The notes beneath the pieces are model-generated. The model had not been told where the DNA came from. It was given only the letters and a program-made list of their open reading frames with translations, and made no database searches. A DNA stretch of 54,276 bases from positions 1 to 54,276 of the IMG/VR virus record IMGVR_UViG_3300025121_000066, one strand, 5' to 3'. The DNA comes from a virus. Its lineage: Duplodnaviria; Caudoviricetes. The translations under genes and the position numbers were made by a program. Shown here one piece after another: positions 13,063-36,019 of the stretch (its first letter is position 1; every line of letters begins with the position of its first letter).

Positions 13063-13064
13063 TT

Positions 13065-14126: not shown

Positions 14127-14151
14127 ATATTATATATTAAAGAAATTGAAA

Positions 14152-14511
14152 TTATTTTTTTCTGATTATTAAAATTTTATCAGTTTTTAATACTTCAGAT
14201 GGTTTTACTTCTATTTTTTCACCATTTCTAAATACAATCATAGAGTGATCATTAGTTACTATTATTTCTTTACCTGTTTTTGTTTTTAATTTCCATTTAG
14301 ATTTAGTTACTTTATGTCTTATAATTCGTTTAACTGGTGCATAATATAAACCTTTTTCTTCACAATAATTTAATATATTATCATTACATTTAACAGATTC
14401 ATGTCCTTTCAATGTTATGCCATTAGAACCATTTTTAATATTTTTATTATATAATTCTTCAATTGTTGAATTACCATTAATAGTATATATAGTAGAATTT
14501 TTATCGACACT
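14152..14511 (-). mobile_element. split intein, N-fragment (119 aa, Ser1)
   Basis: starts at Ser right after YGDTD; block B TxDH (VTNDHS); ends at stop with no terminal HN. Confidence 0.9.
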
Positions 14512-15087
14512 ATCAGTATCACCATATATAACTATTTGATTTTCACCAGTATATTTTTGTCTACCTTCTAAAGTTGTCCAAATAGGGTTTTCATCTAAAG
14601 GATTAACATTTTTAAAATCCCAGATATTATATTGATACATTATTTGAATATCATCGTGTTCAAATTCATATACTTCTAAATCGTCTAAACTAATTTCTTT
14701 ATGTTTAAATAAATCGTTTAATGTATCATGTTTCCAACCTATAATTTTGAAATCCATAGAAAGACATACAAATTTTTCATCCATTTTACCGATATATTCT
14801 ACACCTAACATATCGTGTTTTTTAATATCATTATGCCAATTATTATAAAAATATAATTCAATTCTTTCCATCATAAATTGATTTACATCTCTTCCATGAG
14901 CTGTAATTGAATTAGCAATATCAGCATTAGAACACACAAAATACTTATTAGCAAATGCACCATAAGTTCCGTTAAGTGTTAACTTCAAGGCTAATTGCAT
15001 AGCTTTTGCATAGTCGTGTTCCTTTTTCTTATTATCTATTAGAATTTTTAATTCGTTAATTCTTTGTTTTTTTTGTCTATCGTCCAT
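14152..15087 (-). CDS. polB: family B DNA polymerase fragment (fingers/motif B to motif C) fused to N-intein
   Basis: QLALKLTLNGTYG (motif B), YGDTD (motif C), then intein SVDKNSTI...TNDHSMIV. Confidence 0.92.
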   Translation of the reverse strand: MDDRQKKQRINELKILIDNKKKEHDYAKAMQLALKLTLNGTYGAFANKYFVCSNADIANSITAHGRDVNQFMMERIELYFYNNWHNDIKKHDMLGVEYIGKMDEKFVCLSMDFKIIGWKHDTLNDLFKHKEISLDDLEVYEFEHDDIQIMYQYNIWDFKNVNPLDENPIWTTLEGRQKYTGENQIVIYGDTDSVDKNSTIYTINGNSTIEELYNKNIKNGSNGITLKGHESVKCNDNILNYCEEKGLYYAPVKRIIRHKVTKSKWKLKTKTGKEIIVTNDHSMIVFRNGEKIEVKPSEVLKTDKILIIRKK

Positions 15088-15125
15088 AAATAAAAATTAT
15101 TTAATATATATTATGTATTATATTT

Positions 15126-16727
15126 TTAAAAAAATGTTTTAAAAATAAATTTATAATTTCCAGAATTATAAATACGATAAATTTTACGTTCTAACATAAT
15201 TTCTTTACTTGTTTTATTTTTATCAAATCCTTGTTTTATTAAATTACTTTTTCTAAAATTAAATCTATGTTTTCTGATATTATCAACTATATAATAATGA
15301 TTAGGTGGTGTTAAACTATCTATATTAAATCCTAATTTTTTATACAAATTTCCGTTAGAATAACTTCTATCTGCATAACTTGATATATATTCTGGATTAT
15401 ATTCTTTAATAAAATGTTTAAATAATTTTGAAGCTCCACCAATAACATTAGTATTTAATTTATTACAAAATCTTATAAGTTCAAATTTATTATCTGTTGA
15501 TTTTAAATTCATCATTTTTCTTAATTTACCAAAAGTCATTAAACTAACTAATTCATTTTCAAAAAATAATCCTAACTTAATTGATGATCCTACAAAGCCT
15601 TGAATATGATTTTTATTTAAGAAATTTTTAACTAATTTATTATCAGTTATCTCTCTTATTTCAGTTTTTCTTGCAAATATTCTATTTGATGATTTTTTGA
15701 ATTTATTTAAAATCATTGATTTGACTATATCTTTTTTAAATTCCCAATCATCTTCATAAATATGAATTAATTGAATTCCTTTTTCTTCACATAAATCAGA
15801 TTTATTTTTATGATAATTTTTATCTTTATTTAATTCATTATGCCAATATAATCCATTAAATTCGAATGCTAACTTTAAATCAGGTAGATAAATATCTAAT
15901 TCATATGGTTTTATTATTTTTTTACTATTTTCGACAATTTCGTCTTTATAGTTTTCTTTTATAAAATTTAATAATTGTTTTTCTATTTGTGATATATTCA
16001 TAAACCCAATAGGATTACAATTTAAACACAATTCATTATCGTATAAAATTCTTAATTGTAATAAATTTGAATTAATTAAATAATATTGATTACATTTATC
16101 ACATTTTAATTTATACTTATCATCAATCTTATCGATAATGATTAAATTATGTTTTTCTTTATAAATTTTTATAGAGTTATTAAATTTAGTAATTGAATTA
16201 CTTTTTTGAATTTTATTTTTAAAATAATCTAATTCTGATATATGATTAACACCATACTTATTTTTAATAGTGTTATTTATTTTTTCTCTTATTATATTTG
16301 ATGATAATGCATAATCTGTACCATATACTTCATTACATGTATTTATATATTTAGGCATATTATTATAATTTTCATCACCATATTTTTCGAATTTAGTTTT
16401 TTTCCCCTTTTCTTTTATTGATTCTACTTTCATAGGATTATCAACACCATAATTAATATTAAATGTTTTTTTCTTTTTTATTGTTGAACATTTATGGCAA
16501 GTATAAAAACCATATCTTTCATAATTGTCCATATATTTATTATATGTTAATTGTTTTTCATCATTACAATTTAAACATTTAATATTAATTAAAGCTCTAC
16601 TATTTCTAGGCAAATCATCTATTTTAACTTTTATTATATTATGTAAATCCACATTATAACCCTTATCTTTATAATATGATATATTTCTATATGACATTTT
16701 TATATCTATTGTTTTATCTAAAATCAT
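15126..16727 (-). CDS. Hef-like/Vsr-like homing endonuclease with N-terminal Zn-ribbons and YGV repeats
   Basis: ELDIYLPDLKLAFEFNGLYWH...IQLIHIYEDDW...RIFARK...NHIQG...GGASKLF...SYADRS; start reassigned to MILDKT. Confidence 0.8.
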   Translation of the reverse strand: MILDKTIDIKMSYRNISYYKDKGYNVDLHNIIKVKIDDLPRNSRALINIKCLNCNDEKQLTYNKYMDNYERYGFYTCHKCSTIKKKKTFNINYGVDNPMKVESIKEKGKKTKFEKYGDENYNNMPKYINTCNEVYGTDYALSSNIIREKINNTIKNKYGVNHISELDYFKNKIQKSNSITKFNNSIKIYKEKHNLIIIDKIDDKYKLKCDKCNQYYLINSNLLQLRILYDNELCLNCNPIGFMNISQIEKQLLNFIKENYKDEIVENSKKIIKPYELDIYLPDLKLAFEFNGLYWHNELNKDKNYHKNKSDLCEEKGIQLIHIYEDDWEFKKDIVKSMILNKFKKSSNRIFARKTEIREITDNKLVKNFLNKNHIQGFVGSSIKLGLFFENELVSLMTFGKLRKMMNLKSTDNKFELIRFCNKLNTNVIGGASKLFKHFIKEYNPEYISSYADRSYSNGNLYKKLGFNIDSLTPPNHYYIVDNIRKHRFNFRKSNLIKQGFDKNKTSKEIMLERKIYRIYNSGNYKFIFKTFF

Positions 16728-16852
16728 AATTCGTTTTTTGTTTTTATATATAAAATACAAATGCACCGAAAGTAGCATTTAATATAATGTATAACTTATG
16801 AAAAAAAATGTTTTTATTTTTTTATATATACATTAAAATATAAATAATTTTT

Positions 16853-23982: not shown

Positions 23983-24843
23983 ATGAAGATTCAAACATTG
24001 TCGATTGTAGTTCCAACGAAAAAATGTATTAATAATTGTAAAATGTGTGTTTCTAAAATGCACGATAATGATTATGTATATTCACATAAATCTCCTTTTT
24101 ATATAGAAGATTTAAAAAGAAGAATCAATTATGCTGTAATTAATAATGTTGATACAATAATATTAACTGGAACAGGTGAAGCACTACAAAATAAAACATT
24201 TCTATCATTGGTAGATAAAGTATTAAAAGAATTAGGAAATCCCATACCAAGAATCGAATTACAAACTTCAGGTGTATTACTTAATGATAAAAATTTAGAA
24301 TTTTTACGACTTATGGGTGTAACTACAATTAGTTTATCCATAATGGATTTATTTAATGATGAAAGAAATTTAGATATAATGGGTGCTCCACCACACGTTG
24401 AATTCAAATTAGATAATCTTTGTAAAAGCATTTTATCTTTTGGTTTTAATATTAGATTATCATTAAATATGTCAAAAATATATGATAATGTATTAATTCC
24501 AAAATATTTTCAAAGAACTAAGGAATTAGGTGCATCACAAATAACATTTAGAAAATTATATAGTTCTGATGAAACTACAAAAGAAGGACAATGGGTTAAA
24601 GAAAATTCATTTAATGAATTAAGTTTTAAAACATTAAATCAATATATTAAAGATAATGGTAAATCATTATATAGATTGCCATTCGGTGCGATTGTTTATT
24701 CATTAGACGGTATATCATCAATAGTTGATGATGATTGTATGTCAACTGAAACAGAAGTAAGTGAAACACTTAAATATCTTATATTAAGAGAAGACGGAAA
24801 ACTGTATTGTAAGTGGGATAACAACGGATCACTTATATTTTAG
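23983..24843 (+). CDS. radical SAM protein
   Basis: CINNCKMC (CxxxCxxC), ILTGTGEA, IELQTSG. Confidence 0.9.
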   Translation: MKIQTLSIVVPTKKCINNCKMCVSKMHDNDYVYSHKSPFYIEDLKRRINYAVINNVDTIILTGTGEALQNKTFLSLVDKVLKELGNPIPRIELQTSGVLLNDKNLEFLRLMGVTTISLSIMDLFNDERNLDIMGAPPHVEFKLDNLCKSILSFGFNIRLSLNMSKIYDNVLIPKYFQRTKELGASQITFRKLYSSDETTKEGQWVKENSFNELSFKTLNQYIKDNGKSLYRLPFGAIVYSLDGISSIVDDDCMSTETEVSETLKYLILREDGKLYCKWDNNGSLIF

Positions 24844-24853
24844 ATATTAAAAA

Positions 24854-25048
24854 ATGATAAAAGAAATAAAGAAAAAAATAGCATTTTTCATAATAATATT
24901 CATATTGTTATATTTCCTATTAGGTTTACTGAATGAAACATTCATAATAACTAATTGGAGTAAAATTACTATAGATATGCTATATATGTTTTCTTATATT
25001 ATTATATTTATATTTGTATTTGAAATTATTAGTAAAAAATATTTTTAA
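24854..25048 (+). CDS. small membrane protein
   Basis: two hydrophobic helices. Confidence 0.55.
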   Translation: MIKEIKKKIAFFIIIFILLYFLLGLLNETFIITNWSKITIDMLYMFSYIIIFIFVFEIISKKYF

Positions 25049-25059
25049 AAATAAAAATT

Positions 25060-25935
25060 ATGTTAGAAGAAATTAAAGATTATGGTAAAACATTAGGTTT
25101 AATTCGTAATGAATTAGAAAATTATATAGTAAATAATAACCTTAAATCATTAGTATTAGGTATTAGTGGTGGTATCGATAGTGCTTTAGTAGCATCAATT
25201 GCAAAGCCTATTTGTGATTATATAAAAATACCTCTTATCGGAAGAAGTATTTCTATTGATAGTAATAAACAATCTGAAATTGACAGAGCTGATGCTATTG
25301 GTCATTATTTTTGTACAAATTTTAAACATAGAAATTTAACTGATGAATTTATAAAATTATCAGAAATTAATGCTTTTGATGAAGGTGTATTGAATATAGA
25401 TTGGAGTAATAATTTAGCAGATAAAACTCGACTTGGTAATATTAAAGCAAGAATAAGAATGATTTATTTATACCATTTAGCAAGTTTAACTAAAGGAATG
25501 GTATTAGGGACAGAAAATTTAACAGAAGAAAATTTAGGTTTTTTTACTATAGGTGGAGATGAAATATCTGATTATGAACCTATTAAAAAATTATGGAAAA
25601 CTGAAGTATATAATTTATCAGAATGGATTGTAAAAAATGAATTATCTGGTGATAAATCAAAAGTTTTAATGGATTGTATCAAAGCAGATGCAACAGATGG
25701 GTTAGGAATTACTAATACGGATTTAGATCAAATTCTTCCTGATTTTGTAGGAAATAGTAGAGAAGGGTATTTAGAGATAGATAATATATTTAAAAAATAT
25801 TTTGAATTAATCAGTACAAATACAGAAAAGGATAAAATATTAGAATTAGAAAAAACAATAGTGATTCAAAGATATCATAAAACTTCTTTCAAAAGAAAAA
25901 GACCTATTATTATAGAAAGAAATAAAATATTATGA
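25060..25935 (+). CDS. nadE: NH3-dependent NAD+ synthetase
   Basis: VLGISGGIDSA PP-loop, GNIKARIRM, GTENLTE..GFFTIGGD, LWKTEVY. Confidence 0.92.
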   Translation: MLEEIKDYGKTLGLIRNELENYIVNNNLKSLVLGISGGIDSALVASIAKPICDYIKIPLIGRSISIDSNKQSEIDRADAIGHYFCTNFKHRNLTDEFIKLSEINAFDEGVLNIDWSNNLADKTRLGNIKARIRMIYLYHLASLTKGMVLGTENLTEENLGFFTIGGDEISDYEPIKKLWKTEVYNLSEWIVKNELSGDKSKVLMDCIKADATDGLGITNTDLDQILPDFVGNSREGYLEIDNIFKKYFELISTNTEKDKILELEKTIVIQRYHKTSFKRKRPIIIERNKIL

Positions 25936-25938
25936 TTT

Positions 25939-25954
25939 TGTTCCACGTGGAACA
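25939..25954. promoter_or_regulatory. parS: parS-like centromere palindrome
   Basis: perfect TGTTCCACGTGGAACA. Confidence 0.8.
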
Positions 25955-25986
25955 AAAAAGGGAAATCAATCGATTTCCCTTTTTTA
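25955..25986. terminator. bidirectional intrinsic terminator
   Basis: AAAAAGGGAAATC-AATC-GATTTCCCTTTTTT between convergent genes. Confidence 0.8.
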
Positions 25987-25989
25987 ATT

Positions 25990-27396
25990 TTAAATATTTT
26001 CTTCTGATACATCATTATTATTTTTATCTATGTATGTGTTTAATTTATCTGAATATATAGCATCATCTCTTTTAATATATTCTCTACTAAAATCTGAATA
26101 AACATATTTATACATATTTTCTTTAGATATATATTTATTATATTTTTTTAAATAAACACAATCATCATCCATTCTCCATTCTTCTTCATCTCTACACCAA
26201 CGTAAATTCATTTCAGCATAATCTTTAGCAATCCAAACTTTATAATAATCTGAATATATAGAATCTGCTTTAATTCTATAATCGGATCCTATTTCACACC
26301 ATTGTAAATCTATTTCATCAAAAAATTTATTATAATAGTTGACCCATATTTTATACATATCTAATCCACCATTAGTATCTTGTAATACATATTTAGATAT
26401 ATCTCCTGGTAATTCTTTAGCATTATTAGACAAAACATTATAACTTGTATCATAATAAATTAAAGTATCTAAATATGGATAATCTAAAGATTCAGAAGGT
26501 TTCATATCATTAACCGTTAATATCATATTACTTATTGTTCTATCTTCTAATGTATCAATTATAGGTGTATCGGAATCAGATATTTGTAATTTTTTATATA
26601 ACCATCCTTTAATTTTAGCATATTCCTTAAATAATAATATATCACTATCATAATGAGTATAAATTCTATCCATAAATATTCTTCCTTTTGGTTTATCTAA
26701 ATTCCATACTAATGCTCTCCCTTTTATTAAAGTTGGATATTTTACATCATATAATATTAATAATGAAACTTTATTTGGATTTGTTGCATAAAAGTCTATA
26801 TAATCTTCACTCCTTTGACTAGCCATACAAGAATTTTGTAATGCTGATCCATTAACATAAGTATATTGTTTTGAGTTATAATAATATGTAATATCATATC
26901 CTCTTACTAATTCGAATTTTGCTTTAAGTAAATCTATTGATGATTTAAATAAATTTACAAATGTTTCTATATCTTTTCCAGGCATACCATTTGGTTTAAA
27001 TTCATCCGGGAATAATTTATTTATTAATTTACCTACTTTTAATTTAACTCTATTTTTTCTATATACAATAGAATTCTTTTTATTATTATTTTTAATTATA
27101 TTATCTGTTATATCATCTTCTTTTATATTTTTATTTTTAACAAAAAAATCAATAAGTTTGGGAAGTTCAGTTAAAGAAATTAACTCATTATCTTCATCAA
27201 CTAAATCAATATATGTAATTTTTGTTTTAAAATCAGATTTATTTTCTGATTCTAATAATTTAGTTACAATAGGATGCTTATCTTTTAGCATTTTTAAATG
27301 ATCCCTGAACCTTTTAGAGAATAGTAATACTGTTTCTCCATTATTTAACTTTTCTACTATTAAATCGGTTAAATAACCATTAAATGATTTTAACAT
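25990..27396 (-). CDS. large phage protein with SCM...MDRIY domain; paralog of 6949-8628
   Basis: LQNSCM...FYATNPNKVSLLI...GRALVWNLDKPKGRIFMDRIYT...YPYLDTL; C-terminal short YS/WC repeats. Confidence 0.75.
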   Translation of the reverse strand: MLKSFNGYLTDLIVEKLNNGETVLLFSKRFRDHLKMLKDKHPIVTKLLESENKSDFKTKITYIDLVDEDNELISLTELPKLIDFFVKNKNIKEDDITDNIIKNNNKKNSIVYRKNRVKLKVGKLINKLFPDEFKPNGMPGKDIETFVNLFKSSIDLLKAKFELVRGYDITYYYNSKQYTYVNGSALQNSCMASQRSEDYIDFYATNPNKVSLLILYDVKYPTLIKGRALVWNLDKPKGRIFMDRIYTHYDSDILLFKEYAKIKGWLYKKLQISDSDTPIIDTLEDRTISNMILTVNDMKPSESLDYPYLDTLIYYDTSYNVLSNNAKELPGDISKYVLQDTNGGLDMYKIWVNYYNKFFDEIDLQWCEIGSDYRIKADSIYSDYYKVWIAKDYAEMNLRWCRDEEEWRMDDDCVYLKKYNKYISKENMYKYVYSDFSREYIKRDDAIYSDKLNTYIDKNNNDVSEENI

Positions 27397-28137: not shown

Positions 28138-28701
28138 TTATTTTTCAACAAAATATTCATTAATATCTTCGTCTTCTAATTGATCTTCACTTTCAATTAA
28201 ATAATCTGTAAAACAAATAGATACTAATACTGTACCATATTGTTCATTTGGTATCATTGATTGAACAATATAATTTTCTCCTTCCATTGTATAATGTGAA
28301 AAAGATTTGTTTTTAAGTTCTGATAATGATTCTTGTAAAGTTTCTTGTAAAGTTTCTTCGTCATAATATCCACCTCTTTGAACAACAATTCCTCCGATAT
28401 TATTTTCGTTTTTATCGTACAACCAACCGTATGCAATTCCTGCTGAAATCATTTCATCTTTTCTTCCGTCAAATCTACTCATAATACAATTCATAATTGA
28501 ACCAAAATGCAAATTAGTAGGTTGTTCTATTTCTGTTGCTTCTGGTGGTAATATTGAATTAAATTCAATAATATTTAAATTTCCTATTCCTGCATCTCTT
28601 AACGCTAAATAATAACTTCCTGATGTATGGGTATGTCTACTTTCACCACATCCCTGTGTTACAAAAAAACTATGCGGAATAAAATTTTGTATTTTTCTCA
28701 T
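28138..28701 (-). CDS. pyruvoyl-dependent arginine decarboxylase family protein
   Basis: FFVTQGCGES...SYYLALRDAGIGNLNIIEFNSILPP...ISAGIAYG (N-S where the family has the S-S self-cleavage site). Confidence 0.8.
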   Translation of the reverse strand: MRKIQNFIPHSFFVTQGCGESRHTHTSGSYYLALRDAGIGNLNIIEFNSILPPEATEIEQPTNLHFGSIMNCIMSRFDGRKDEMISAGIAYGWLYDKNENNIGGIVVQRGGYYDEETLQETLQESLSELKNKSFSHYTMEGENYIVQSMIPNEQYGTVLVSICFTDYLIESEDQLEDEDINEYFVEK

Positions 28702-30209: not shown

Positions 30210-30610
30210 TATTTATTTATTTTAATATTGTTATCTATTTTAAAATCTTGTAACCATAATATAGCTGAAAATACATCACTAAATACTTTATATTCGTATC
30301 TATCTATTGTTAATGCATATAACATAGCTATTGGTGTATCAAATATTTTATCATTATTTTCTAAAATTAATGCTACTTTTATTGAATTAAATTTTTGTAA
30401 TATTCCTTCGATATATATTTTTACTAATTTTTTCTTTTCAGAATCAAAAATATATTCTGATGTTCTTATATAAATAATTGCTCTTAAATCAAGTGGTAAT
30501 TGGCTATGACCTATTTGTTCAAAGCTATTTTTCATTTGATCTGTAGTTATTTCATTTGTATAAACTATTTCTAATACTTTTTTCTTTATATTCCATTTTG
30601 ATGTTATCAT
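30209..30610 (-). CDS. hypothetical protein (possible STAS/SEC14-like alpha-beta fold)
   Basis: KVALIL...YKVFSDVFSAILWL C-terminal pattern. Confidence 0.5.
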   Translation of the reverse strand: MITSKWNIKKKVLEIVYTNEITTDQMKNSFEQIGHSQLPLDLRAIIYIRTSEYIFDSEKKKLVKIYIEGILQKFNSIKVALILENNDKIFDTPIAMLYALTIDRYEYKVFSDVFSAILWLQDFKIDNNIKINK

Positions 30611-30633
30611 AACATCAATATATATTAAAAGTA

Positions 30634-30873
30634 CTATTTTGATAAAATCATTTCTAAATAATCATCCTTATTTACGAACTTATTACGTTTAGGATAATCA
30701 CTTAAAATATTATCTTGTAGTTTCATTAAGAAAATAGTGAATTCATTTAAATCCATATCAGATATTGGGGTATTTAATTTTATTAGAAATTGACATTCAT
30801 TACTAATGAAATTAATATAAATAACTTTTCCATATTGTGTTAAGAATTCTTTTAATTTTTGCTTTATATCCAT
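30634..30873 (-). CDS. hypothetical protein
   Basis: 79-aa ORF. Confidence 0.5.
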   Translation of the reverse strand: MDIKQKLKEFLTQYGKVIYINFISNECQFLIKLNTPISDMDLNEFTIFLMKLQDNILSDYPKRNKFVNKDDYLEMILSK

Positions 30874-30875
30874 AA

Positions 30876-31148
30876 TTATTCCGGTTTATTAACTTTTATA
30901 AATGTTTTACATTTTTTAGGTATTACAAATGCATTAAATTTTTTACCATCACCTTCAAATGGTTGAAATCGTAATGCCATTCCAAATGACCAATTATCTA
31001 AACCTAATGGTATAGCATAATCACCAAAATATACAGCTTGTGATTCATCTACGTATTTTCCACCACTTTCTTTACAATTACATAATCTAAATCCATCTGA
31101 ATATATTCTAAATATATCATGACATTTTTTACAATATATTAATTTCAT
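30876..31148 (-). CDS. Zn-ribbon hypothetical protein
   Basis: MKLIYCKKCHD...CNCKESGG. Confidence 0.65.
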   Translation of the reverse strand: MKLIYCKKCHDIFRIYSDGFRLCNCKESGGKYVDESQAVYFGDYAIPLGLDNWSFGMALRFQPFEGDGKKFNAFVIPKKCKTFIKVNKPE

Positions 31149-31152
31149 AATA

Positions 31153-31184
31153 CAAAGATACTATATTAATAACTTAATTACAAA
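31153..31184 (-). promoter_or_regulatory. Bacteroidota-type promoter
   Basis: TTTG, 20-nt spacer, TATCTTTG on minus strand. Confidence 0.65.
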
Positions 31185-31241
31185 TTTATTTTTAAATGTT
31201 TACTTATATAGAATCAATTACATAGTAAAATAACTTCATTG

Positions 31242-31327
31242 TACCCTGAGTGGGATTTGAACCCACATAGTATATTTCAACTGCCAGTTCCTAAAACTGG
31301 TGCGTCTGCCGATTCCGCCACCAGGGC
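31242..31327 (-). tRNA. tRNA-Leu(TAG)
   Basis: GCCCTGG/TCAGGGT acceptor, CCAGT-TTTAGGA-ACTGG, long V arm, TTCAAAT T-loop. Confidence 0.92.
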
Positions 31328-31355
31328 ATTCATTTGTTATATTGTAACTTTGTTG

Positions 31356-31435
31356 TACCCAAGGTGGGACTTGAACCCACATACCTTTCGGCACTGGTTT
31401 CTTAGGCCAGCATGTCTGCGTTCCATCACTCGGGC
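31356..31435 (-). tRNA. tRNA-Leu(AAG), atypical
   Basis: CTGGC-CTAAGAA-ACCAG (C.A at 31-39), V arm TGCC-GAAA-GGTA, D-loop lacks GG. Confidence 0.75.
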
Positions 31436-31437
31436 AT

Positions 31438-31653
31438 TTATTTTATATTATAATCTCCCCACCATTTATGAACTGCATTGTAAGGAACTACATCTGCTTT
31501 TTGTCCTTCTTTTGGTTCATCGTAAAATTTTAAACACCAATATCCACTCTTATGTACTATATAAAATGTTACCCTATCATATGCATCATATTCTGTATAA
31601 CAATAATCGTCTGATACATGTCTTACACTTTTCCCATTTTTATATTTTGTCAT
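31438..31653 (-). CDS. hypothetical protein within tRNA region
   Basis: MTKYKNGK...; own promoter directly upstream. Confidence 0.55.
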   Translation of the reverse strand: MTKYKNGKSVRHVSDDYCYTEYDAYDRVTFYIVHKSGYWCLKFYDEPKEGQKADVVPYNAVHKWWGDYNIK

Positions 31654-31669
31654 AATTTCTAATTTTACA

Positions 31670-31701
31670 CAAAAATACAAAAAATTATTGAATTATACAA
31701 A
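31670..31701 (-). promoter_or_regulatory. Bacteroidota-type promoter
   Basis: TTTG, 20-nt spacer, TATTTTTG on minus strand. Confidence 0.6.
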
Positions 31702-31704
31702 ATA

Positions 31705-31738
31705 AAGAACACAATATATTAAGGTATATTGTGTTCTT
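31705..31738 (-). terminator. hairpin, probable terminator after tRNA-Gly
   Basis: AAGAACACAATATA-6nt-TATATTGTGTTCTT, 14-bp stem. Confidence 0.6.
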
Positions 31739-31742
31739 ATTG

Positions 31743-31817
31743 AGCATCGTGTCGGGTTCAAACCGACCCTATTCTGCGGTGGAAGCGCAGTGCCATAATC
31801 AACTAGGCGAACGATGC
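31743..31817 (-). tRNA. tRNA-Gly(TCC)
   Basis: GCATCGT/ACGATGC, U73, CTGCG-CTTCCAC-CGCAG; T-loop TTTGAAC, D-loop GA instead of GG. Confidence 0.85.
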
Positions 31818-32522
31818 ATTATATTCTTGTATTAAATTTTCATATGTTAATTTCTTTAATTGATTTCTATATCTTTGTCTTTCACTTCTACCATTTCCAT
31901 TATTTAAAGATCCAAATGTTTTTGTTAATGAATGACAACTAGGACACAATAAATCTAAATTTTCTTCTAAATTATTTTTACTATTTCCATCTTTATGTTC
32001 AACTTGTAAAGGAATTTTATTTGTATAAGGATTTATTTTATTCCATCCACATTCAGTACATTTGCTATTATATTTTTTAAATAAATATTTTCTTATATAT
32101 GTAGATAATCCACTTCCAGATATTCCATTTTCTTCACCATTTTTCCACCTTTTTATATATTCATTATATTCATAATCACATTGACATTTATCACTACAAT
32201 ATTTTTTTTGTCTTCCTTCTAAATTTTTATCACAACATACACAATTTTTAATTTTCTTTTTTTTCTTTTTATTATTAAAAGATGCTGAACAACTTTTACT
32301 ACAAAATTTTCTTTCGTCTCTATCACTTATAATTTCTGTTTGGCAATTTAAACAAAAAAATATTTTAGTTTCTTTATAATCACTACTTTTTATTCCTAAT
32401 CTAAAACACTTTGATCTAATTGATTGATTTGTAGTTTCAAATATATTAGCAATTTCATCATAAGTATAACCATTTGTAATATATTGAATTAATTCTTTTA
32501 TACTTTCTTCTGTCCATTTCAT
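31803..32522 (-). CDS. HNH homing endonuclease
   Basis: CTECG...LQVEHKDGNSKNNLEENLDLLCPSCH; N-terminal HTH and KFCSKSC Zn fingers; start reassigned to MKWTEE (longer ORF runs through tRNA genes). Confidence 0.88.
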   Translation of the reverse strand: MKWTEESIKELIQYITNGYTYDEIANIFETTNQSIRSKCFRLGIKSSDYKETKIFFCLNCQTEIISDRDERKFCSKSCSASFNNKKKKKKIKNCVCCDKNLEGRQKKYCSDKCQCDYEYNEYIKRWKNGEENGISGSGLSTYIRKYLFKKYNSKCTECGWNKINPYTNKIPLQVEHKDGNSKNNLEENLDLLCPSCHSLTKTFGSLNNGNGRSERQRYRNQLKKLTYENLIQEYNASFA

Positions 32523-32583
32523 AATTTTATATCTTTTTTTATTATATATAAAATTTGAGCGGTCTGTTTTTTTTAATTTTTTG

Positions 32584-32657
32584 AGCGAATGACGGGACTT
32601 GAACCCGCAAACCTTCTGCTTGGCAAGCAGACTATCTACCAATTGATATACATTCGC
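32584..32657 (-). tRNA. tRNA-Gly(GCC)
   Basis: GCGAATG/CATTCGC, U73, TCTGC-TTGCCAA-GCAGA, TTCAAGT. Confidence 0.92.
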
Positions 32658-32662
32658 GTTTG

Positions 32663-32753
32663 AGCAGGTAGTGAGATTCAAACTCACGTTGTAGGCATTA
32701 ATGCCATTTCTGGATTGGAAGTCCAGCGCCATCGACCACTAGGCGACACCTGC
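32663..32753 (-). tRNA. tRNA-Gly(TCC) with long variable arm
   Basis: GCAGGTG/TACCTGC, U73, CTGGA-CTTCCAA-TCCAG, V region AAATGGCATTAATGCCTACAAC. Confidence 0.85.
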
Positions 32754-32763
32754 AAAAATTTTA

Positions 32764-32891
32764 AAAAATGATTTAAATATTAGGGAAAATTATTATCGTC
32801 TTTAATTCCACATAGATTGCGATTCTACATGTATTTCCCTTTGTAAAGATTGAAATGAAAAATAGTAAACTATTAACATTAAATCATTTTT
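32764..32891 (-). ncRNA. putative structured RNA between tRNA-Met and tRNA-Gly
   Basis: 13-bp terminal stem AAAAATGATTTAA/TTAAATCATTTTT enclosing AGGGAAA/TTTCCCT and CATGTAGA/TCTATGTG stems. Confidence 0.4.
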
Positions 32892-32892
32892 G

Positions 32893-32975
32893 TTGCGACG
32901 ACTGGTTTCGAACCAGCGGTACCCGAAGGATCTTGGATATGAGCCAAGTGCAATTGACCACTCTGCCACGTCGCA
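32893..32975 (-). tRNA. tRNA with CAT anticodon (Met, or lysidine-Ile) and long variable arm
   Basis: TGCGACG/CGTCGCA, CTTGG-CTCATAT-CCAAG, V region ATCC-TTCG-GGTACC, TTCGAAA. Confidence 0.85.
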
Positions 32976-32980
32976 ATATT

Positions 32981-33160
32981 AAAGTCTTTTTGTCCATTTT
33001 CAGTGAAATACCATTACGTTTTTGGATTGGTCCTGCCGTAACTTATGTATCTTTACAATAAACATCAACTGCTGAATCAGTCTATAATGATGTAGTTTTT
33101 CCTGGCTTTACAAGATTTCTAACTCTTACATTACTGTTTATCTTCAAGCAAAAAGACTTT
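32981..33160 (-). ncRNA. putative 180-nt structured RNA
   Basis: 12-bp terminal stem AAAGTCTTTTTG/CAAAAAGACTTT; central ACATCA/TGATGT + ACTG/CAGT hairpin; fills the spacer exactly. Confidence 0.45.
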
Positions 33161-33166
33161 GTGTTT

Positions 33167-33904
33167 TTAAATTATTTTTAAATCTTTTAATTCTTTTCTT
33201 TTCCATATAAGTAATGGTTCTTTAAATTGTGACCATTTACATTCATCTAAATCTGTTTGATATCCTTTAACTTCTAAATATGTATTCCAATCATGAATAT
33301 AAAAATCGGGACAATATGTTGATTTTTTATCTTTTAAATTAATATATTTAAATCTTTTTTTATTACGTTCCCATTTTACATTTATATTATCCAAATATTT
33401 AGCAACGCCTAATTCCCAACTACCATCTACTTTAATAATTCCTGCTATTGGGCTAGTATAATCATATTTAGGTGCTCTTCCACATTTTACTTCCCATCCA
33501 TTATCATATCTTTCTAATATTTTTTTTCGGATTTTTTTACATCTAATTTCTTCTTTTTCAGGTGTCGATCCTAATCCAGATGATGTAAATCCTCCTTTAC
33601 GACTACCTTCTATATATGATTCATATTTATCTGGTGAAAGAATGTCTTTCATTTTTTTACCTTTATTCCATCCTTGACCTTTTCCTATATTTAATCTTCT
33701 ACGTCTTGGTCCTCTACTATCACAACTATTTACATGTTTTTCTATAGATGATTTTATTTCAAAATTACATTTTGGACATATAAATATTTTTTTATTTTGT
33801 TTTTCCAAATCTGTTTTTGTTCCAAACCCATCACAATAATTTTCGTGATTAGATTTACCAGCTTTATTTTTAAATTCTTTATTACATTTGCTACAATTAT
33901 ACAT
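33167..33904 (-). CDS. PD-(D/E)XK (TnsA-N-like) free-standing endonuclease with N-terminal Zn fingers
   Basis: GSWELGVAKYLD...YCPDFYI...YLEVKGY; CSKC..H..C and CPKC..H..C. Confidence 0.8.
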   Translation of the reverse strand: MYNCSKCNKEFKNKAGKSNHENYCDGFGTKTDLEKQNKKIFICPKCNFEIKSSIEKHVNSCDSRGPRRRRLNIGKGQGWNKGKKMKDILSPDKYESYIEGSRKGGFTSSGLGSTPEKEEIRCKKIRKKILERYDNGWEVKCGRAPKYDYTSPIAGIIKVDGSWELGVAKYLDNINVKWERNKKRFKYINLKDKKSTYCPDFYIHDWNTYLEVKGYQTDLDECKWSQFKEPLLIWKRKELKDLKII

Positions 33905-33971
33905 AATAACTATTATTTTTTATTATATATAAAAATCATACAGGTCTAAAATTACCACTTTAAATATACTG

Positions 33972-34056
33972 CGGAGGACAAGGGAATTGAACCCTCGGAT
34001 CGTGAGACCAGATATTTAGCAGATACCCGCAACTAACCAACATTTGCCTATCCTCC
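33972..34056 (-). tRNA. tRNA-Ser(GCT)
   Basis: GGAGGAT/GTCCTCC, G73, GGTAT-CTGCTAA-ATATC, long V arm. Confidence 0.9.
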
Positions 34057-34073
34057 TTTTGTGTTTATAGTTG

Positions 34074-34153
34074 TGGAACTGGTGGGATTCGAACCCACGT
34101 TTTCGACCCTGCGTGCAAGGCAGGCGCTTACGGCCAAACTGAGCTACAGCCCC
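34074..34153 (-). tRNA. tRNA-Ala(TGC)
   Basis: GGGGCTG/CAGTTCC with G3:U70, CCTGC-CTTGCAC-GCAGG, 9-nt variable region. Confidence 0.92.
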
Positions 34154-34445
34154 AAAACTGCTACTTTTTTTAAAGGAAATCAACAAAACCATTTGTGGAA
34201 TGTTGCGGAATTTCATCGTCATGCCAATTGTCATAATACTATACAACCGTGAGGATTTTAATACCCCTTCACCCCATATTTTAAAGTGAAGGATAATATA
34301 ACTTCTTCATCAGAAATCATATTACCTATTTAGATAACCTAAGTTCGGTCTACACCTCAAACGATATCAAACCCCCTGTAGGTTAGGTAATTTATCGTAC
34401 TTAGTTAAAAATACCGTGAATATTTCTATGTTGTCTAATACTTCG

Positions 34446-34518
34446 TACCTCGGGTGGAACTCGAATCCACAGTCGCAAGTTTAGAAAACTTGTGCTTTTT
34501 CCATTAAGCTACCAAGGC
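34446..34518 (-). tRNA. tRNA-Arg(TCT)
   Basis: GCCTTGG/CCGAGGT, CAAGT-TTTCTAA-ACTTG, TTCGAGT. Confidence 0.92.
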
Positions 34519-34536
34519 ATTTTTGTGTTTTTAGAG

Positions 34537-34622
34537 AACCCCATGCGAGACTCGAACTCGCATGTCATTTCCAATTACTCGTTTAACGACACTGTTTAGA
34601 AGACTGTTGAGAATAATGGGGC
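34537..34622 (-). ncRNA. rearranged tRNA-like RNA with TCT anticodon loop
   Basis: acceptor GCCCCAT/ATGGGGT and perfect T-arm GCGAG-TTCGAGT-CTCGC; no D-arm in normal position; 29-nt insert after anticodon arm. Confidence 0.7.
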
Positions 34623-34663
34623 TTGTGTTTTTATTGTACTTACATAGTAAGACAACTTCGTTG

Positions 34664-34736
34664 TACCCTTAACAAGATTCGAACTTGTACAAAAAATTTA
34701 GGAAATTAATATGCTTCTCCATTACATCATAAGGGC
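34664..34736 (-). tRNA. tRNA-Arg(CCT), weak anticodon stem (possibly degenerate)
   Basis: GCCCTTA/TAAGGGT, TTAAT-TTCCTAA-ATTTT (two T.T mismatches), TTCGAAT. Confidence 0.7.
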
Positions 34737-34742
34737 ATTTTG

Positions 34743-34815
34743 AACCCCCTATGAGATTTAAACTCATAACCTCTCGGGCCGTAACCGAGTGCTCCGTTCG
34801 TTAAGCTAAGGGGGC
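34743..34815 (-). tRNA. tRNA-Arg(ACG)
   Basis: GCCCCCT/AGGGGGT, CTCGG-TTACGGC-CCGAG; T-loop TTTAAAT, D-loop lacks canonical GG. Confidence 0.82.
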
Positions 34816-34847
34816 TTATGTTTTTCATAATTAATTTTATATTTTTG

Positions 34848-34921
34848 TCTAGGTGGCGGGCTACGATCCCACGACATCCACATCCCAAATGTGGCATTCT
34901 ACCTGGCTGAATTACACCTAG
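34848..34921 (-). tRNA. tRNA-Pro(TGG)
   Basis: CTAGGTG/CACCTAG, A73, CCACA-TTTGGGA-TGTGG. Confidence 0.9.
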
Positions 34922-34930
34922 AAAACACAC

Positions 34931-34946
34931 AATACGTCAAAGAACT
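34931..34946 (-). promoter_or_regulatory. boxA-like antitermination element
   Basis: AGTTCTTTGACGTATT; related copies at 35061-35076 and 35178-35191. Confidence 0.55.
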
Positions 34947-34975
34947 TTTCATTGATAAATCAATGAAACTTAATG

Positions 34976-35061
34976 CTGTCCAGGTAGGGTTCAAACCTAC
35001 AAATTCCTCACGGAACACCAGATCCAAAATCTGGCGCGTTTATCAATTCCGCCACTGGACA
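34976..35061 (-). tRNA. tRNA-Gln(TTG) with long variable arm
   Basis: TGTCCAG/CTGGACA (U1-A72), G73, CCAGA-TTTTGGA-TCTGG, V arm TTCC-GTGA-GGAA, Leu-like D-arm. Confidence 0.85.
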
Positions 35062-35079
35062 ATATTTTAAAGAACTAAT

Positions 35080-35095
35080 TGTTCCACGTGGAACA
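35080..35095. promoter_or_regulatory. parS: parS-like centromere palindrome
   Basis: perfect TGTTCCACGTGGAACA, identical to 25939-25954. Confidence 0.8.
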
Positions 35096-35100
35096 AGTTG

Positions 35101-35174
35101 GGTGATATGTGGGTTACGATCCCACTACCTTCTGCGCCACAAGCAGACACTCTACCGATTGAGCTAATACCACC
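35101..35174 (-). tRNA. tRNA-His(GTG)
   Basis: encoded G-1 and C73, TCTGC-TTGTGGC-GCAGA. Confidence 0.92.
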
Positions 35175-35202
35175 ATTTATTTTAAAGAACGTTTATAAAA
35201 AC

Positions 35203-35233
35203 AAAAAACCCGAAACTTTTTTTGGTTCCGGGT
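35203..35233 (-). terminator. attenuator terminator upstream of first tRNA
   Basis: ACCCGGAAC-8nt-GTTTCGGGT followed by TTTTTGTTTTT, lying between promoter and tRNA-His. Confidence 0.85.
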
Positions 35234-35305
35234 GTGTCTTATGGTTTTTTATATTTTATATGAAATTAATCATGTTTTATATAACTGTTTCCAATTAGAC
35301 ACACC
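35231..35305 (-). promoter_or_regulatory. antiterminator helix
   Basis: GGTGTGTCT (35297-35305) pairs AGACACACC (35231-35239), which overlaps the terminator 5' strand. Confidence 0.75.
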
Positions 35306-35371
35306 GCTTCTTCCTGCTGGACGACTGCCCTGTAGTTGATGCATTCTCATATGTCTATTTGTCATTGTCAT
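35270..35371 (-). CDS. leader peptide of the tRNA array (33 aa, MTMTNRHMRMHQLQGSRPAGRSGVSNWKQLYKT)
   Basis: manual translation; codons 6-23 all decodable by the downstream tRNAs; overlaps antiterminator. Confidence 0.8.
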   Translation of the reverse strand: MTMTNRHMRMHQLQGSRPAGRSGVSNWKQLYKT

Positions 35372-35448
35372 AATTTATATTTTGTTATTTTATTATATAT
35401 ATTTAATTATTTAAGTCTATTTTTTCCATTTTGAAATATTTATAGGTA

Positions 35449-35480
35449 CAAAGATATATAAAGTTTATTTATTCTCCAAA
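35449..35480 (-). promoter_or_regulatory. Bacteroidota-type promoter of leader/tRNA array
   Basis: TTTG (35477-35480), 20-nt spacer, TATCTTTG (35449-35456); TATATATA motif also at ~35394-35402. Confidence 0.7.
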
Positions 35481-35773
35481 TTTTTTCGTATATTTTTTTT
35501 TCTTTCATCAATTGTCAAATATGTTTTTTGTTCTACTTCCTTTATATCATCCTGGTTTTGCAATCTTTTATTTATATTAAAATTTAATATTTTATTTTTA
35601 ACATAATCTAAAATTTCGGTATCAGTATATTCTTTTAATACATATGAATCTATTGATAATTTTTTTTCAAAATATAAATATCGATGATTATAACCATCTA
35701 TAATTATATTATTCTTTTTTAAAAGTTTATATATCTTCCTTGTTGAAGTTAATGAATAATCTATATCGGACAT
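35465..35773 (-). CDS. hypothetical protein, paralog of 36334-36941
   Basis: NHRYLYF...YTDTEILDYVK...LTIDERKKNIRKNL. Confidence 0.65.
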   Translation of the reverse strand: MSDIDYSLTSTRKIYKLLKKNNIIIDGYNHRYLYFEKKLSIDSYVLKEYTDTEILDYVKNKILNFNINKRLQNQDDIKEVEQKTYLTIDERKKNIRKNLENK

Positions 35774-35782
35774 AATTAATAA

Positions 35783-36019
35783 TTAAAAAATATGACCACA
35801 TACAATATTAAAATTCTCATCTACTTCAATTTCAATATTAGCAAATTCGCCATATTGGAATTTTTTTTGTACTACTTCTGTATAGAATTTATCAGAAAGT
35901 TCATCTTCATCTAAGCCTGGATGTTCTTTTTCAAATTTATCCCATAATAATTCATGAGCTAATTCCATCCAACCATCAGAAGCTTTAATTGATTCTATTT
36001 TAATTTTTGCTGTTTTCAT
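35783..36019 (-). CDS. hypothetical protein
   Basis: 78-aa acidic ORF. Confidence 0.6.
   Translation of the reverse strand: MKTAKIKIESIKASDGWMELAHELLWDKFEKEHPGLDEDELSDKFYTEVVQKKFQYGEFANIEIEVDENFNIVCGHIF

Follow-up and report, generated by a model that had tools for sequence, protein, structure and literature searches.

The window analysed here, a 54,276-nucleotide stretch that makes up the whole of a Caudoviricetes virus record (IMG/VR IMGVR_UViG_3300025121_000066), carries two genes with the anticodon UCU side by side on the minus strand. One, at 34445–34518, is a canonical tRNA-Arg(UCU), called by ARAGORN and scoring 65.6 bits with the Rfam tRNA model; it lies outside the element under study and serves as context. 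The other is an 86-base gene at 34537–34622 that resembles a tRNA, with just eight bases between its 5′ acceptor strand and its anticodon hairpin. The sequence and this short separation are exactly as given in the preliminary description, and the normal Arg(TCT) tRNA alongside is confirmed.

Neither ARAGORN nor Rfam detects the 86-base element. ARAGORN did not call it under any of five option sets, none of the 22 Rfam matches in the region 30500–36000 (E ≤ 10) overlaps it, and it falls below the RF00005 gathering threshold of 29 bits, with no match to that model even at E ≤ 10. Contigs from three further sequencing runs are identical to the window across the element, with no other letters, indicating that it is not an assembly artefact; in contigs of the four DNA runs the sequence is the same throughout, with no micro-variation. 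The sequencing runs containing the window include no listed RNA run. A blastn search of GenBank phages with positions 34400–34760 gave no match, no viral stretch matched an exact pattern of two anchors from the window copy, and a search for relatives of the locus via a nearby arginine decarboxylase open reading frame found none. Folded as a single sequence, the element reaches −24.1 kcal/mol (z = −2.28), mildly better than shuffled sequences, of which 3 of 200 fold equally well.

Read 5′ to 3′ along the minus strand, the gene comprises 85 nt followed by the discriminator base U73 (34537), and CCA is not encoded. The acceptor 5′ strand GCCCCAU (34616–34622) pairs with the 3′ strand AUGGGGU (34538–34544), the first pair being a G1–U72 wobble. 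The U8 A9 connector, UA (34614–34615), leads into the 5′ strand of a D-stem analogue (34608–34613), UUCUC-A, which consists of an extra U (34613), the U22 equivalent (34612), C23 U24 C25 (34611–34609) and the A26 equivalent (34608); its CUC pairs with GAG at 34580–34578. The anticodon arm (34591–34607) has stem strands ACAGU and ACAGU and the loop CUUCUAA, with the anticodon at 34598–34600. It is followed by a spacer, GUCGUUAAAC (34581–34590), in which GUCGUU precedes AAAC, and then by the 3′ strand of the D-stem analogue (34577–34580), which provides the equivalents of G10 A11 G12 together with U13. Directly adjoining is a D-loop analogue, AAUUGGA (34570–34576), equivalent to A14 A15 U16 U17 G18 G19 A20, so that the motif from U13 to N20 reads UAAUUGGA in the window copy (34577–34570). 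A linker, AAUGACAU (34562–34569), ends in a U (34562) that matches Y48. The T arm (34545–34561; GCGAG, UUCGAGU, CUCGC) and the acceptor 3′ strand, both assigned from sequence and fold, complete the element.

On sequence comparison, this element is a member of a large phage-associated family whose core appears to be wired unlike the cloverleaf. The 5′ part of the family layout comprises acceptor stem, U8 A9, a short strand, anticodon arm and spacer; the 3′ part comprises the complementary strand, directly followed by a D-loop-like UAAYUGGA, then linker and T arm. The RNAs are 74–90 nt long, with spacers of 2–10 nt, mostly 2–5 nt. A pattern scan of viral contigs returned at least 119 stretches, and 103 among the 119 viral matches listed pass a strict stem filter (at least 6/7 acceptor, 4/5 anticodon-stem and 4/5 T-stem pairs) with the same layout. 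Under the same filter, 7 among the 120 matches listed from bacterial and archaeal genomes pass, all 7 on MAG contigs. Because the anticodon loop, U13–A15, one G and part of the T-loop were specified in the search patterns, their conservation in pattern-derived sequences carries no independent weight; no constraint was placed on the stems, U8 A9, N73 or most of position 20. A covariance model, R2, built from 61 relatives with the window copy left out, recovers the window copy at 49.6 bits (E = 6.6e-11) across model positions 1–75 of 75, while the canonical tRNAs of the window score at most 24.9 bits.

The single-sequence model R1 found full-length homologues in 4 of 5 related megaphage records. 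The homologue in LR745206 (1501–1581 of the locus stretch L007) lies directly upstream of a canonical tRNA-Arg(tct) (1586–1658), as in the window, and its MFE fold, computed from that sequence alone, gives the family fold including the helix CCC/GGG. A forced ARAGORN drawing of the same homologue (90 nt, starting 9 nt upstream) has a poor acceptor stem and was discarded as an artefact. Three matches of R1 and R2, namely L011 687–756, L266 (anticodon UUU) and L264 (UAG), have the canonical order with long variable arms and were set aside as non-members. Members occur in at least 271 plus 49 GenBank phage records, counted by BLAST alone, and in hundreds of viral contigs. They are found within tRNA clusters (median, 7 other tRNAs per locus stretch examined) and are carried by cultured phages including Felix O1 (25951–26029, within a tRNA cluster) and 121Q. 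Most are unannotated: ARAGORN detects 6 of 120 members, and in a spread of 60 matches five bear any tRNA label and none is labelled Arg. On a typical member (L097), the Rfam tRNA model scores 41.7 bits by deleting the D-arm and placing the D-strand and loop in a variable-region insertion.

The D-stem analogue was assessed in two alignments. In a structure-blind MAFFT alignment of 61 sequences, excluding the window copy, 92.5% of cells are paired, compared with 63.3% in shuffles, none of 500 of which reaches the observed value; the covariation score is 0.801, against 0.216 for shuffled and at most 0.167 for slid partners. Pair 11:39 of this alignment is CG in 40 sequences, UA in 19, AU in 1 and GC in 1, with none unpaired, and pair 12:38 is GC in 40, UA in 9, AU in 5 and CG in 5, with 2 unpaired. 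The second, model-based alignment of 119 distinct sequences, window copy included, gives closely similar values (92.8% versus 62.0% paired; covariation 0.828 versus 0.215 and at most 0.161). Here columns 13:55, 14:54 and 15:53 are paired in 119, 117 and 79 of the 119 sequences, with 4, 4 and 5 standard pair types, mutual information of 1.07, 1.62 and 0.50 bits, and 25 different triplet combinations. The helix, which corresponds to 34577–34580 covarying with 34609–34611 in the window, also covaries in 69 further members of Ile type. Forty of 119 members lack the third pair; the TGG/GCA subfamily may use a shifted register in which a G is bulged. Given the 61-sequence alignment, RNAalifold returns the acceptor, anticodon and T stems and leaves out the three-pair D-analogue helix.

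These homologues with compensatory changes in the helix corresponding to CUC/GAG mean that the gene is no decayed one-off tRNA with a random insertion, the case that the preliminary description had named as its refutation. Its central proposal, a D-stem and elbow reassembled in permuted order, the variable-region side providing the D-loop, is borne out by the covarying helix in the 119 distinct homologues. The pairing itself was drawn too long: three pairs (CUC/GAG) plus a U–U apposition stand, whereas a five-pair helix with a bulged T does not. An arrangement in which the D-loop analogue is closed by its own variable-region hairpin was also considered and rejected, as the linker in most members has no complement to the strand of positions 10–12.

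The other stems of the family behave as those of a tRNA. All seven acceptor pairs vary on both sides (97.6% of cells paired; G–U at 1:72 in 38 of 119 members), the T stem is 99.0% paired with both-side changes in 4 of 5 pairs, and the constant CUUCUAA loop sits on a covarying 5-bp stem. The U8 A9 connector, with A at the equivalent of position 14, is present in 119 of 119 distinct members, and in the alignment exactly one base, equivalent to position 26, lies between the D-analogue strand and the anticodon stem, as in canonical tRNA. The D-loop-like sequence noted earlier after the anticodon arm indeed acts like tRNA positions 13–21 (U13, A14, R15, G18 G19, N20). The tertiary pair 15:48 is AU in 111, GC in 6, UA in 1 and another combination in 1 of the 119 sequences, and AU in 36, GC in 28, AC in 4 and GU in 1 of the independent Ile-type set (n = 69). 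Of the 108 members with Arg anticodons, 105 have A after G18 G19; among the 11 others this base is U in 9 and A in 1. All 69 Ile-type members have A as N73. The identity set of Escherichia coli ArgRS comprises A20, C35 and U/G36, and A73 is an identity element for Ile. The window copy has the arginine bases, with A after G18 G19 (34570) and the anticodon UCU.

We consider it likely that the element is a functional tRNA-Arg(UCU), delivering arginine at AGA codons, in which positions 10–21 have been moved into the variable region. The short strands pair, a single base separates their helix from the anticodon stem, positions 15 and 48 covary, and position 20 tracks the amino acid of the anticodon. 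In the proposed fold, a strand of 3–4 bases right after U8 A9 would take the place of positions 22–25, followed by base 26 and a normal anticodon arm. After the short spacer would come strand 10–13 and directly the D-loop A14 R15 Y16 U17 G18 G19 N20; a short linker ending in Y48, the normal T arm and the acceptor 3′ strand would complete the RNA. An argument from tRNA geometry suggests an ordinary L shape, in which the D-stem analogue would continue the stack of the anticodon stem and the D-loop, from its new place, would still touch the T-loop; the contacts would be G18–Ψ55, G19–C56, U8–A14 and R15–Y48. The RNA would then be processed, charged by the host ArgRS (via A20, C35 and U36) and used on the ribosome.

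Within this family the window copy is divergent. It has one extra base after A9, a 10-nt spacer and an anticodon stem whose ACAGU strands are incompletely complementary, a detail missing from the preliminary description; the arm is present, with four pairs around an A–A mismatch at the third pair (34605/34593). The corresponding column, 19:32, is unpaired in just 3 of 119 members, making the window copy unusual at this site, and the mismatch is a deviation of the window copy and not of the family layout. A stem between GUCGUU in the spacer and AAUGAC at 34564–34569, which the preliminary description took as the basis of a pseudoknot, holds for the window MFE fold and for two other members (L020 and L048), but is not a family feature (3 of 119); L028 has a helix of other sequence, AGGC/GCCU, in the same place. 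In the window copy this helix would enclose the D-strand and D-loop in a hairpin loop, turning CUC/GAG into a pseudoknot; with spacers of 2–5 nt in most members, a pseudoknot is unneeded there. Given the extra base, the long spacer with its helix and the A–A mismatch, the window copy may function less well than typical members, and the adjoining canonical tRNA-Arg(UCU) makes it dispensable.

These features bear on an alternative that we regard as unlikely, namely that the family is functional but the window copy is a pseudogene in decay, redundant beside the canonical tRNA and no longer working in translation. The mid-stem mismatch would fit decay, as would an R2 score among the lowest of the family (5 of 119 other matches score lower, and many reach 70–90 bits), an MFE structure that lacks the anticodon hairpin and is 11 kcal/mol better than the family fold (nearest-neighbour energy −12.7 kcal/mol), and the canonical tRNA of the same anticodon 18 nt downstream. 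However, everything else in the window copy is intact: 7/7 acceptor pairs, 5/5 T-stem pairs, CUC/GAG, U8, A14, A15–U48, G18 G19, A20 and the CUUCUAA loop. The spacer–linker helix is common to L020 and L048, both of which have perfect anticodon stems, which makes the long insertion a lineage trait rather than damage. Nor does redundancy alone predict loss, since LR745206 has both genes side by side with the noncanonical copy intact and both kinds occur in 19 of 97 loci. The identical sequence in the three further runs also speaks against decay.

A tRNA mimic acting outside translation strikes us as very improbable. Such an RNA would look like a tRNA and retain an arginine-type anticodon loop but deliver no amino acid; as a decoy or sponge, it could draw off host tRNA-targeting (anticodon) nucleases or a phage enzyme. 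In favour of this reading, both the window and LR745206 also carry a canonical tRNA of the same anticodon, which prompts the question of why the two genes persist, and the family is concentrated in viral sequence, as the strictly filtered matches listed show. Yet 78 of 97 loci have no separate canonical tRNA(tct) in the stretch examined, and the Felix O1 member is the sole UCU decoder seen in the tRNA cluster examined, a 7-kb stretch in which the only tRNA-Arg annotated or called has the anticodon ACG. Position 20 and N73 vary with the anticodon's amino acid, a match that synthetases require and that an anticodon-loop decoy could do without; the same scaffold bears at least 8 anticodons, which stand for 4 amino acids (Arg, Ile, Lys and Trp), like a working tRNA set; and CCA follows N73 in 32 of 86 distinct members. 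Between the two possibilities raised earlier, decoy or functional noncanonical tRNA, the isotype-specific identity bases, read from sequence, favour a chargeable tRNA over a pure decoy. Least credible of all, and already contradicted by the covariation data, is that the element is an ordinary tRNA misread, of class II with a long variable arm and another anticodon, or a chance tRNA-like fragment. Such a reading could cite the GenBank annotation of the 121Q copy as tRNA-Leu(taa), a tRNA-Val over the match in a Streptomyces phage record, a tRNA-Leu over an Ile-type match in EGole, and the position of the GUCGUU/AAUGAC hairpin of the window, which sits where a variable arm would be. But ‘taa’ falls in the spacer, which varies across the family in length (2–10 nt) and sequence; the D-arm position holds no hairpin, having eight bases of which three pair with the distal strand; and the E value with R2 and the hundreds of homologues exclude a chance fragment.

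The rewired layout of the favoured tRNA-Arg(UCU) reading is without description in the literature searched. A broader proposal, which we put forward as tentative and rather doubtful, is that phages of at least three host phyla share this scaffold, undescribed in that literature, with positions 10–21 in the variable region; that it is fully functional with host synthetases, EF-Tu and ribosomes; and that it is retained as a poor substrate for nucleases or modification-dependent defences that read the canonical core of D-arm and variable loop. The host phyla in question are Proteobacteria, Actinobacteria and, via crAss-like phages and megaphages, probably Bacteroidota. If this were true, the scaffold would give phages an orthogonal, attack-resistant supply of rare-codon decoders, mainly for AGA, AGG and AUA. 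Textbook tRNAs outside mitochondria all have, to our knowledge, the same strand order; the family would show that an L-shaped core can be built with another strand connectivity while every canonical tertiary contact is kept, and that such connectivity is widely used in nature. Phage annotations mostly omit or mislabel its genes, with the result that AGA and AUA decoders are undercounted in phage tRNA repertoires and in analyses of codon usage. The scaffold could be a natural starting point for orthogonal tRNA design, and the family offers a direct way to ask which elements of the core RNase P, modification enzymes, synthetases, EF-Tu and anti-phage tRNA nucleases recognise. Its carriers include cultured E. 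coli phages, among them Vequintavirinae and Justusliebigvirus phages as well as 121Q, making bench work straightforward.

Compared with canonical tRNA-Arg(UCU) (RF00005), the family has the same 7-bp acceptor, 5-bp T stem with UUCGANY loop, 5-bp anticodon stem and 7-nt loop CUUCUAA; U8, A14, R15:Y48, G18 G19 and A20 are all kept, and the genes are sited in tRNA gene clusters, often with encoded CCA. The window copy likewise has a canonical 7-bp acceptor, a 5/7/5 T arm with UUCRANY, and a 7-nt anticodon loop with U33 and R37. Unlike canonical tRNA, the family has no D hairpin (10–13/loop/22–25) between positions 9 and 26, and the partner of the 22–25 equivalent lies 3′ of the anticodon arm together with the whole D-loop. 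This relocation makes the RNA a three-way junction with one long arm instead of a four-way cloverleaf. Class II tRNAs (Leu/Ser/Tyr) do not accommodate the element either: it has no D arm, and the GUCGUU/AAUGAC hairpin is limited to 3 of 119 members.

Metazoan mitochondrial tRNA-Ser(GCU/UCU) resembles the family in having no D hairpin and a short connector between acceptor and anticodon arms. According to PMC4013460, D-arm-lacking mitochondrial tRNA-Ser is counted as functional despite the missing arm; such tRNAs are small, lack a D-loop altogether and rely on mitochondrial factors adapted to them. The phage family, by contrast, retains the D-loop in full, G18 G19 included, along with a standard T-loop and the Levitt pair; its members are 74–90 nt long and presumably served by ordinary bacterial factors. 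The window copy, at 86 nt and with GG in its D-loop analogue and a UUCGAGU T-loop, is similar in wiring to the mitochondrial class and is not a member of it. In models by Steinberg and co-workers, the mitochondrial anticodon stem is reportedly extended by pairs between connector and variable region; the D-analogue helix of the phage family has the same topology as this extension.

Natural departures from the 7/5 cloverleaf are also known in tRNA-Sec, tRNA-Pyl and allo-tRNAs (8/4 or 9/3 acceptor/T), some of which are found in phage tRNA clusters (PMC5389517; review, PMC7609411). Unlike the family, these keep the normal arm order and differ in stem lengths. In the text of the review, ‘phage’, ‘virus’ and ‘permut’ do not appear. 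In none of these tRNAs does the D-loop follow the anticodon arm. Permuted and split tRNA genes (Cyanidioschyzon merolae, Nanoarchaeum) share with the family a segment order in the gene that is not canonical; they are permuted by halves, and processing restores a canonical mature tRNA. In permuted genes the acceptor ends are internal, whereas the window copy has both acceptor strands at the gene termini, and no simple excision, whether of an intron or from a permuted gene, gives the canonical order. With the acceptor strands at the ends and no simple splicing route to the cloverleaf order, it would be the mature RNA itself that is rewired.

The window has a G+C content of 24% over its 54,276 bases, an estimated completeness of 13% and, by tblastn, closest GenBank relatives among uncultured phages of 462–735 kb (LR756501, LR745206, LR756502, LR756504 and LR756500). 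ARAGORN called 14 tRNAs on its minus strand, clustered at 31241–35173. The element under study, the window copy (34537–34622, minus strand), lies inside this cluster between tRNA-Arg(CCT) (34663–34736) and a canonical tRNA-Arg(TCT) (34445–34518), and its sequence is identical, base for base, to that in the preliminary description. Neither ARAGORN, run with five option sets, nor any of 22 Rfam matches at E ≤ 10 across 30500–36000 covers it.

A covariance model of the window copy alone (R1) gave full-length matches in four of five related megaphage records, all sharing the odd layout. In LR745206, a canonical tRNA-Arg(tct) begins 5 nt past the match, the same arrangement as in the window. Placed side by side, the copies have three bases after U8 A9 that are complementary to the three before a UAAYUGGA motif, and these triplets change jointly among the megaphages (CUC/GAG, CCC/GGG, CGA/UCG and CGU/GCG). 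A degenerate pattern combining the anticodon loop, the D-loop-like motif and the T-loop matched at least 119 stretches in IMG/VR; a strict stem filter passed 103 of the 119 listed, resulting in 86 distinct sequences, and 32 of these 86, among the matches listed, encode CCA after N73. The identical pattern matched at least 120 stretches in a bacterial and archaeal genome collection, but the filter passed just 7 of the 120 listed, each on a MAG contig. The family thus shows a strong association with viruses. The search patterns set U13–A15, one G, the anticodon loop and a portion of the T-loop, so that conservation there in pattern-derived sequences is not evidence; the stems, U8 A9, N73 and, in the UUGG form, position 20 were unconstrained.

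To score covariation, we counted pairs on the proposed structure (acceptor 7, helix replacing the D stem, or D-analogue, 4, anticodon 5, T 5). A structure-blind MAFFT alignment held 61 of 91 distinct sequences; the other 30, including the window copy, were excluded because MAFFT shifted them on account of a long spacer or a base inserted behind A9. Standard pairs occupied 92.5% of its cells versus 63.3% after shuffling (0 of 500 shuffles as high), and the covariation score was 0.801 against 0.216 for shuffles and at most 0.167 for slid partners. The family model built from these 61 sequences (R2) then aligned 120 matches, 119 of them distinct, drawn from 97 sources that included the window, with 92.8% of cells paired versus 62.0% and a covariation score of 0.828 versus 0.215 (0 of 500; slid partners ≤0.161). 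The first D-analogue pair is formed in 119/119 (CG 85, UA 29, AU 4, GC 1; mutual information 1.07 bits), the second in 117/119 (GC 63, CG 21, UA 20, AU 13; 1.62 bits) and the third in 79/119. The 22:13 apposition flanking this helix is U-U in 71, C-U in 18 and standard in 30 (A-U 23, G-U 7), and on the 5′ side the helix and the anticodon stem are exactly one base apart, that base corresponding to canonical position 26. A caveat is that RNAalifold does not recover the three-pair helix unaided, although the minimum free energy (MFE) fold of the LR745206 homologue, taken singly, contains it. The preliminary description had proposed a D stem rebuilt in permuted order and had named homologues with compensatory changes as the test; these were found, supporting that topology. 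In a subfamily of ~20 members with TGG/GCA triplets (for example, loci L014, L021 and L257), the third D-analogue position is unpaired. A longer UGGC/GYGCA helix with one bulged G can be drawn there from sequence, and the LR756504 CCA member would fit the same register.

The simplest description would be that segment 10–21, comprising the 5′ D-stem strand and the D-loop, is placed between the equivalents of 45 and 46 rather than between 9 and 22. Canonical tRNAs have their D stem stacked on the anticodon stem, and the 39–43–44 strand continues spatially into 10–13 but is broken there. In the family, this strand would be continuous, with the break moved to between 9 and 22. The resulting secondary structure would be a three-way junction with one long D-analogue/anticodon arm, in which the D-loop becomes a junction strand still able to reach the T-loop. 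This three-dimensional wiring is our inference from canonical tRNA geometry.

Features outside the helices bear on function. Position 15, two after U13, covaries with position 48, just before the T stem (AU 111, GC 6, UA 1, other 1; n = 119); the Levitt pair of tRNAs is R15:Y48. G18G19 is followed by A in 105 of the 108 members with Arg anticodons and by U in 9 of the 11 others. The identity set of bacterial ArgRS comprises A20, C35 and U/G36. Anticodons in this first set (n = 119) are UCU 93, CCU 8, UCG 6, ACG 1, GAU 5, UAU 4, CUU 1 and CCA 1, a spectrum biased because the search pattern demanded UCU. A second, independent scan for Ile-type members matched at least 119 stretches, with 94 distinct matches and, among the matches listed, 69 past the strict filter. 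In these 69 listed matches, the anticodon is UAU (35) or GAU (34), each of the three helix pairs is formed in 69/69 across 13 triplet combinations, 15:48 is AU 36, GC 28, AC 4 and GU 1, and N73 is always A (69/69), an Ile identity element. The identity bases and the 15:48 pair are consistent with tRNAs that adopt the standard L shape and serve as substrates of ordinary synthetases. The preliminary description had also considered a decoy for anticodon nucleases; in a mere anticodon-loop decoy, these features would be superfluous. Evasion of nucleases that read the canonical core is a candidate reason why phages keep the scaffold, and the boldest reading the data allow.

The scaffold extends beyond Arg(UCU) to UAU and GAU (Ile), CUU (Lys), CCA (Trp) and CCU, UCG and ACG (Arg), with examples at L262 1501–1580, L260 1501–1577, L259 1501–1578, L062 11003–11080 and L039 2493–2571; the single phage loci L039, L062 and L043 hold four members each. 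One CCU member (L060 944–1017, minus strand) has a relocated D-loop without GG (UAGAUAGA) and a UGCAAAU T-loop instead of UUCRANY, so that both elbow-contact partners are altered together.

The window copy sits near the bottom of the family. R2, trained without it, scores it at 49.6 bits (E = 6.6e-11), whereas canonical tRNAs in the window reach 24.9 bits at most; just 5 of the 119 other R2 matches score lower than the window copy. It has a single extra U following A9, a 10-nt spacer, a G1-U72 wobble that is frequent in the family (38/119) and an A-A mismatch central in the anticodon stem, a pair unpaired in only 3/119 members. Its MFE fold retains the acceptor stem, the T arm and a long GUCGUU/AAUGAC hairpin and lacks the UCU hairpin; nearest-neighbour energies, computed without the pseudoknot, are −12.7 kcal/mol for the family fold, −18.7 kcal/mol for the four-helix fold of the preliminary description and −24.1 kcal/mol for the MFE. 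Such quirks could reflect decay beside a canonical tRNA with the same anticodon, which we consider unlikely; the sequence recurs identically in contigs from three further runs. We conclude that the window copy belongs, as a divergent member, to a widespread family of phage tRNAs whose core is rewired. GUCGUU of its spacer can pair with AAUGAC in the linker. In its closest relatives, L020 and L048, GUCGUU is retained and faces GUGAC, one U-A becoming U-G. Another locus, L028, has an AGGC/GCCU helix at the equivalent place, predicted by its own MFE fold. A closing helix of this kind, enclosing the D-strand and D-loop, therefore seems to be a genuine option in a few lineages, where it makes the CUC/GAG pairing a pseudoknot; the pseudoknot originally proposed would thus hold for these lineages and is not a family trait.

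One Arg-type member matched 271 GenBank phage records by blastn (hosts Escherichia 143, Salmonella 54, Klebsiella 40, Streptomyces 6, Campylobacter 5 and others), and one Ile(UAU)-type member matched 49 (Streptomyces 45, Microbacterium, Rhodococcus and one crAss-like phage). Annotation is sparse: in a 60-row spread, five carry a tRNA label (tRNA-OTHER 3, tRNA-Leu 1, tRNA-Val 1), none Arg, and the remaining rows are CDS, featureless or wholly unannotated. The 121Q member (L133 695–776) is labelled tRNA-Leu(taa), its variable spacer read as anticodon, and that of Klebsiella phage Roth37 tRNA-OTHER. The Felix O1 member (NC_005282.1 25951–26029; L404 2452–2530) scores 67.1 bits under R2, with no RefSeq tRNA feature over it and ARAGORN silent; across the 7 kb examined there, annotation and gene calls give a single tRNA-Arg, with anticodon ACG. 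An HNH endonuclease CDS begins at 26003, within the 3′ part of this member. ARAGORN calls just 6 of 120 members. The Rfam tRNA model scores a typical member at 41.7 bits, in an alignment that omits the D arm and treats the D-strand and loop as an insertion within the variable region, so some members may surface as odd tRNAs in Infernal-based pipelines. A separate canonical tRNA(tct) occurs in the stretch examined at 19 of 97 loci.

Other features of the window accompany the cluster. Four minus-strand tRNAs keep the canonical order but have variable regions of a length uncommon in their isotypes: Gln(UUG) (34975–35061; 87 nt, 5-bp variable arm), Met(CAU) (32892–32975; 84 nt, short variable arm), Gly(UCC) (32662–32753; 92 nt, variable region ~21 nt) and Ala(UGC) (34073–34153; 81 nt, top Rfam match the tmRNA model, below threshold). 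Related megaphages such as LR745206 (L011 673–756 and neighbours) carry canonical-order tRNA-Lys genes of 84–87 nt with long variable arms, adjoining ordinary 73–74-nt tRNA-Lys genes. Within the cluster lie minus-strand ORFs resembling an HNH endonuclease (31803–32732; 309 aa as listed), whose 5′ end overlaps two tRNA-Gly genes, so that its true start is probably internal, and an endonuclease/resolvase (33167–33904; 245 aa). In Felix O1 and Roth37, HNH genes lie next to family members as well. An intein-like segment and two large ORFs for homing endonucleases (PHROG 559/3339, DUF723) break the family B DNA polymerase into pieces (12070–16778, minus strand). Auxiliary genes typical of very large phages (2408–3710, 9894–11681, 23983–25935 and 28138–28701) include a Glu/Gln-type aminoacyl-tRNA synthetase with a C-terminal tRNA-binding arm, a NUDIX hydrolase beside a microbial-type PARG, a radical SAM protein, NAD synthase and a pyruvoyl-dependent arginine decarboxylase.

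Judged from its sequence, the element would be tRNA-like in its working, yet it lacks a defining canonical feature, a D hairpin at positions 10–25. Permuted and split tRNA genes yield canonical mature tRNAs. A full-text literature search, covering main texts and few subscription journals, returned no tRNA with a D-loop downstream of the anticodon arm; an earlier description of the layout may exist beyond the literature searched. Unlike the family, tRNA-Sec, tRNA-Pyl and allo-tRNAs retain the normal arm order (PMC7609411; PMC5389517). The nearest known wiring is that of mitochondrial tRNA-Ser lacking the D arm, which has no D-loop and no G18G19/T-loop contact and needs adapted factors (PMC4013460).
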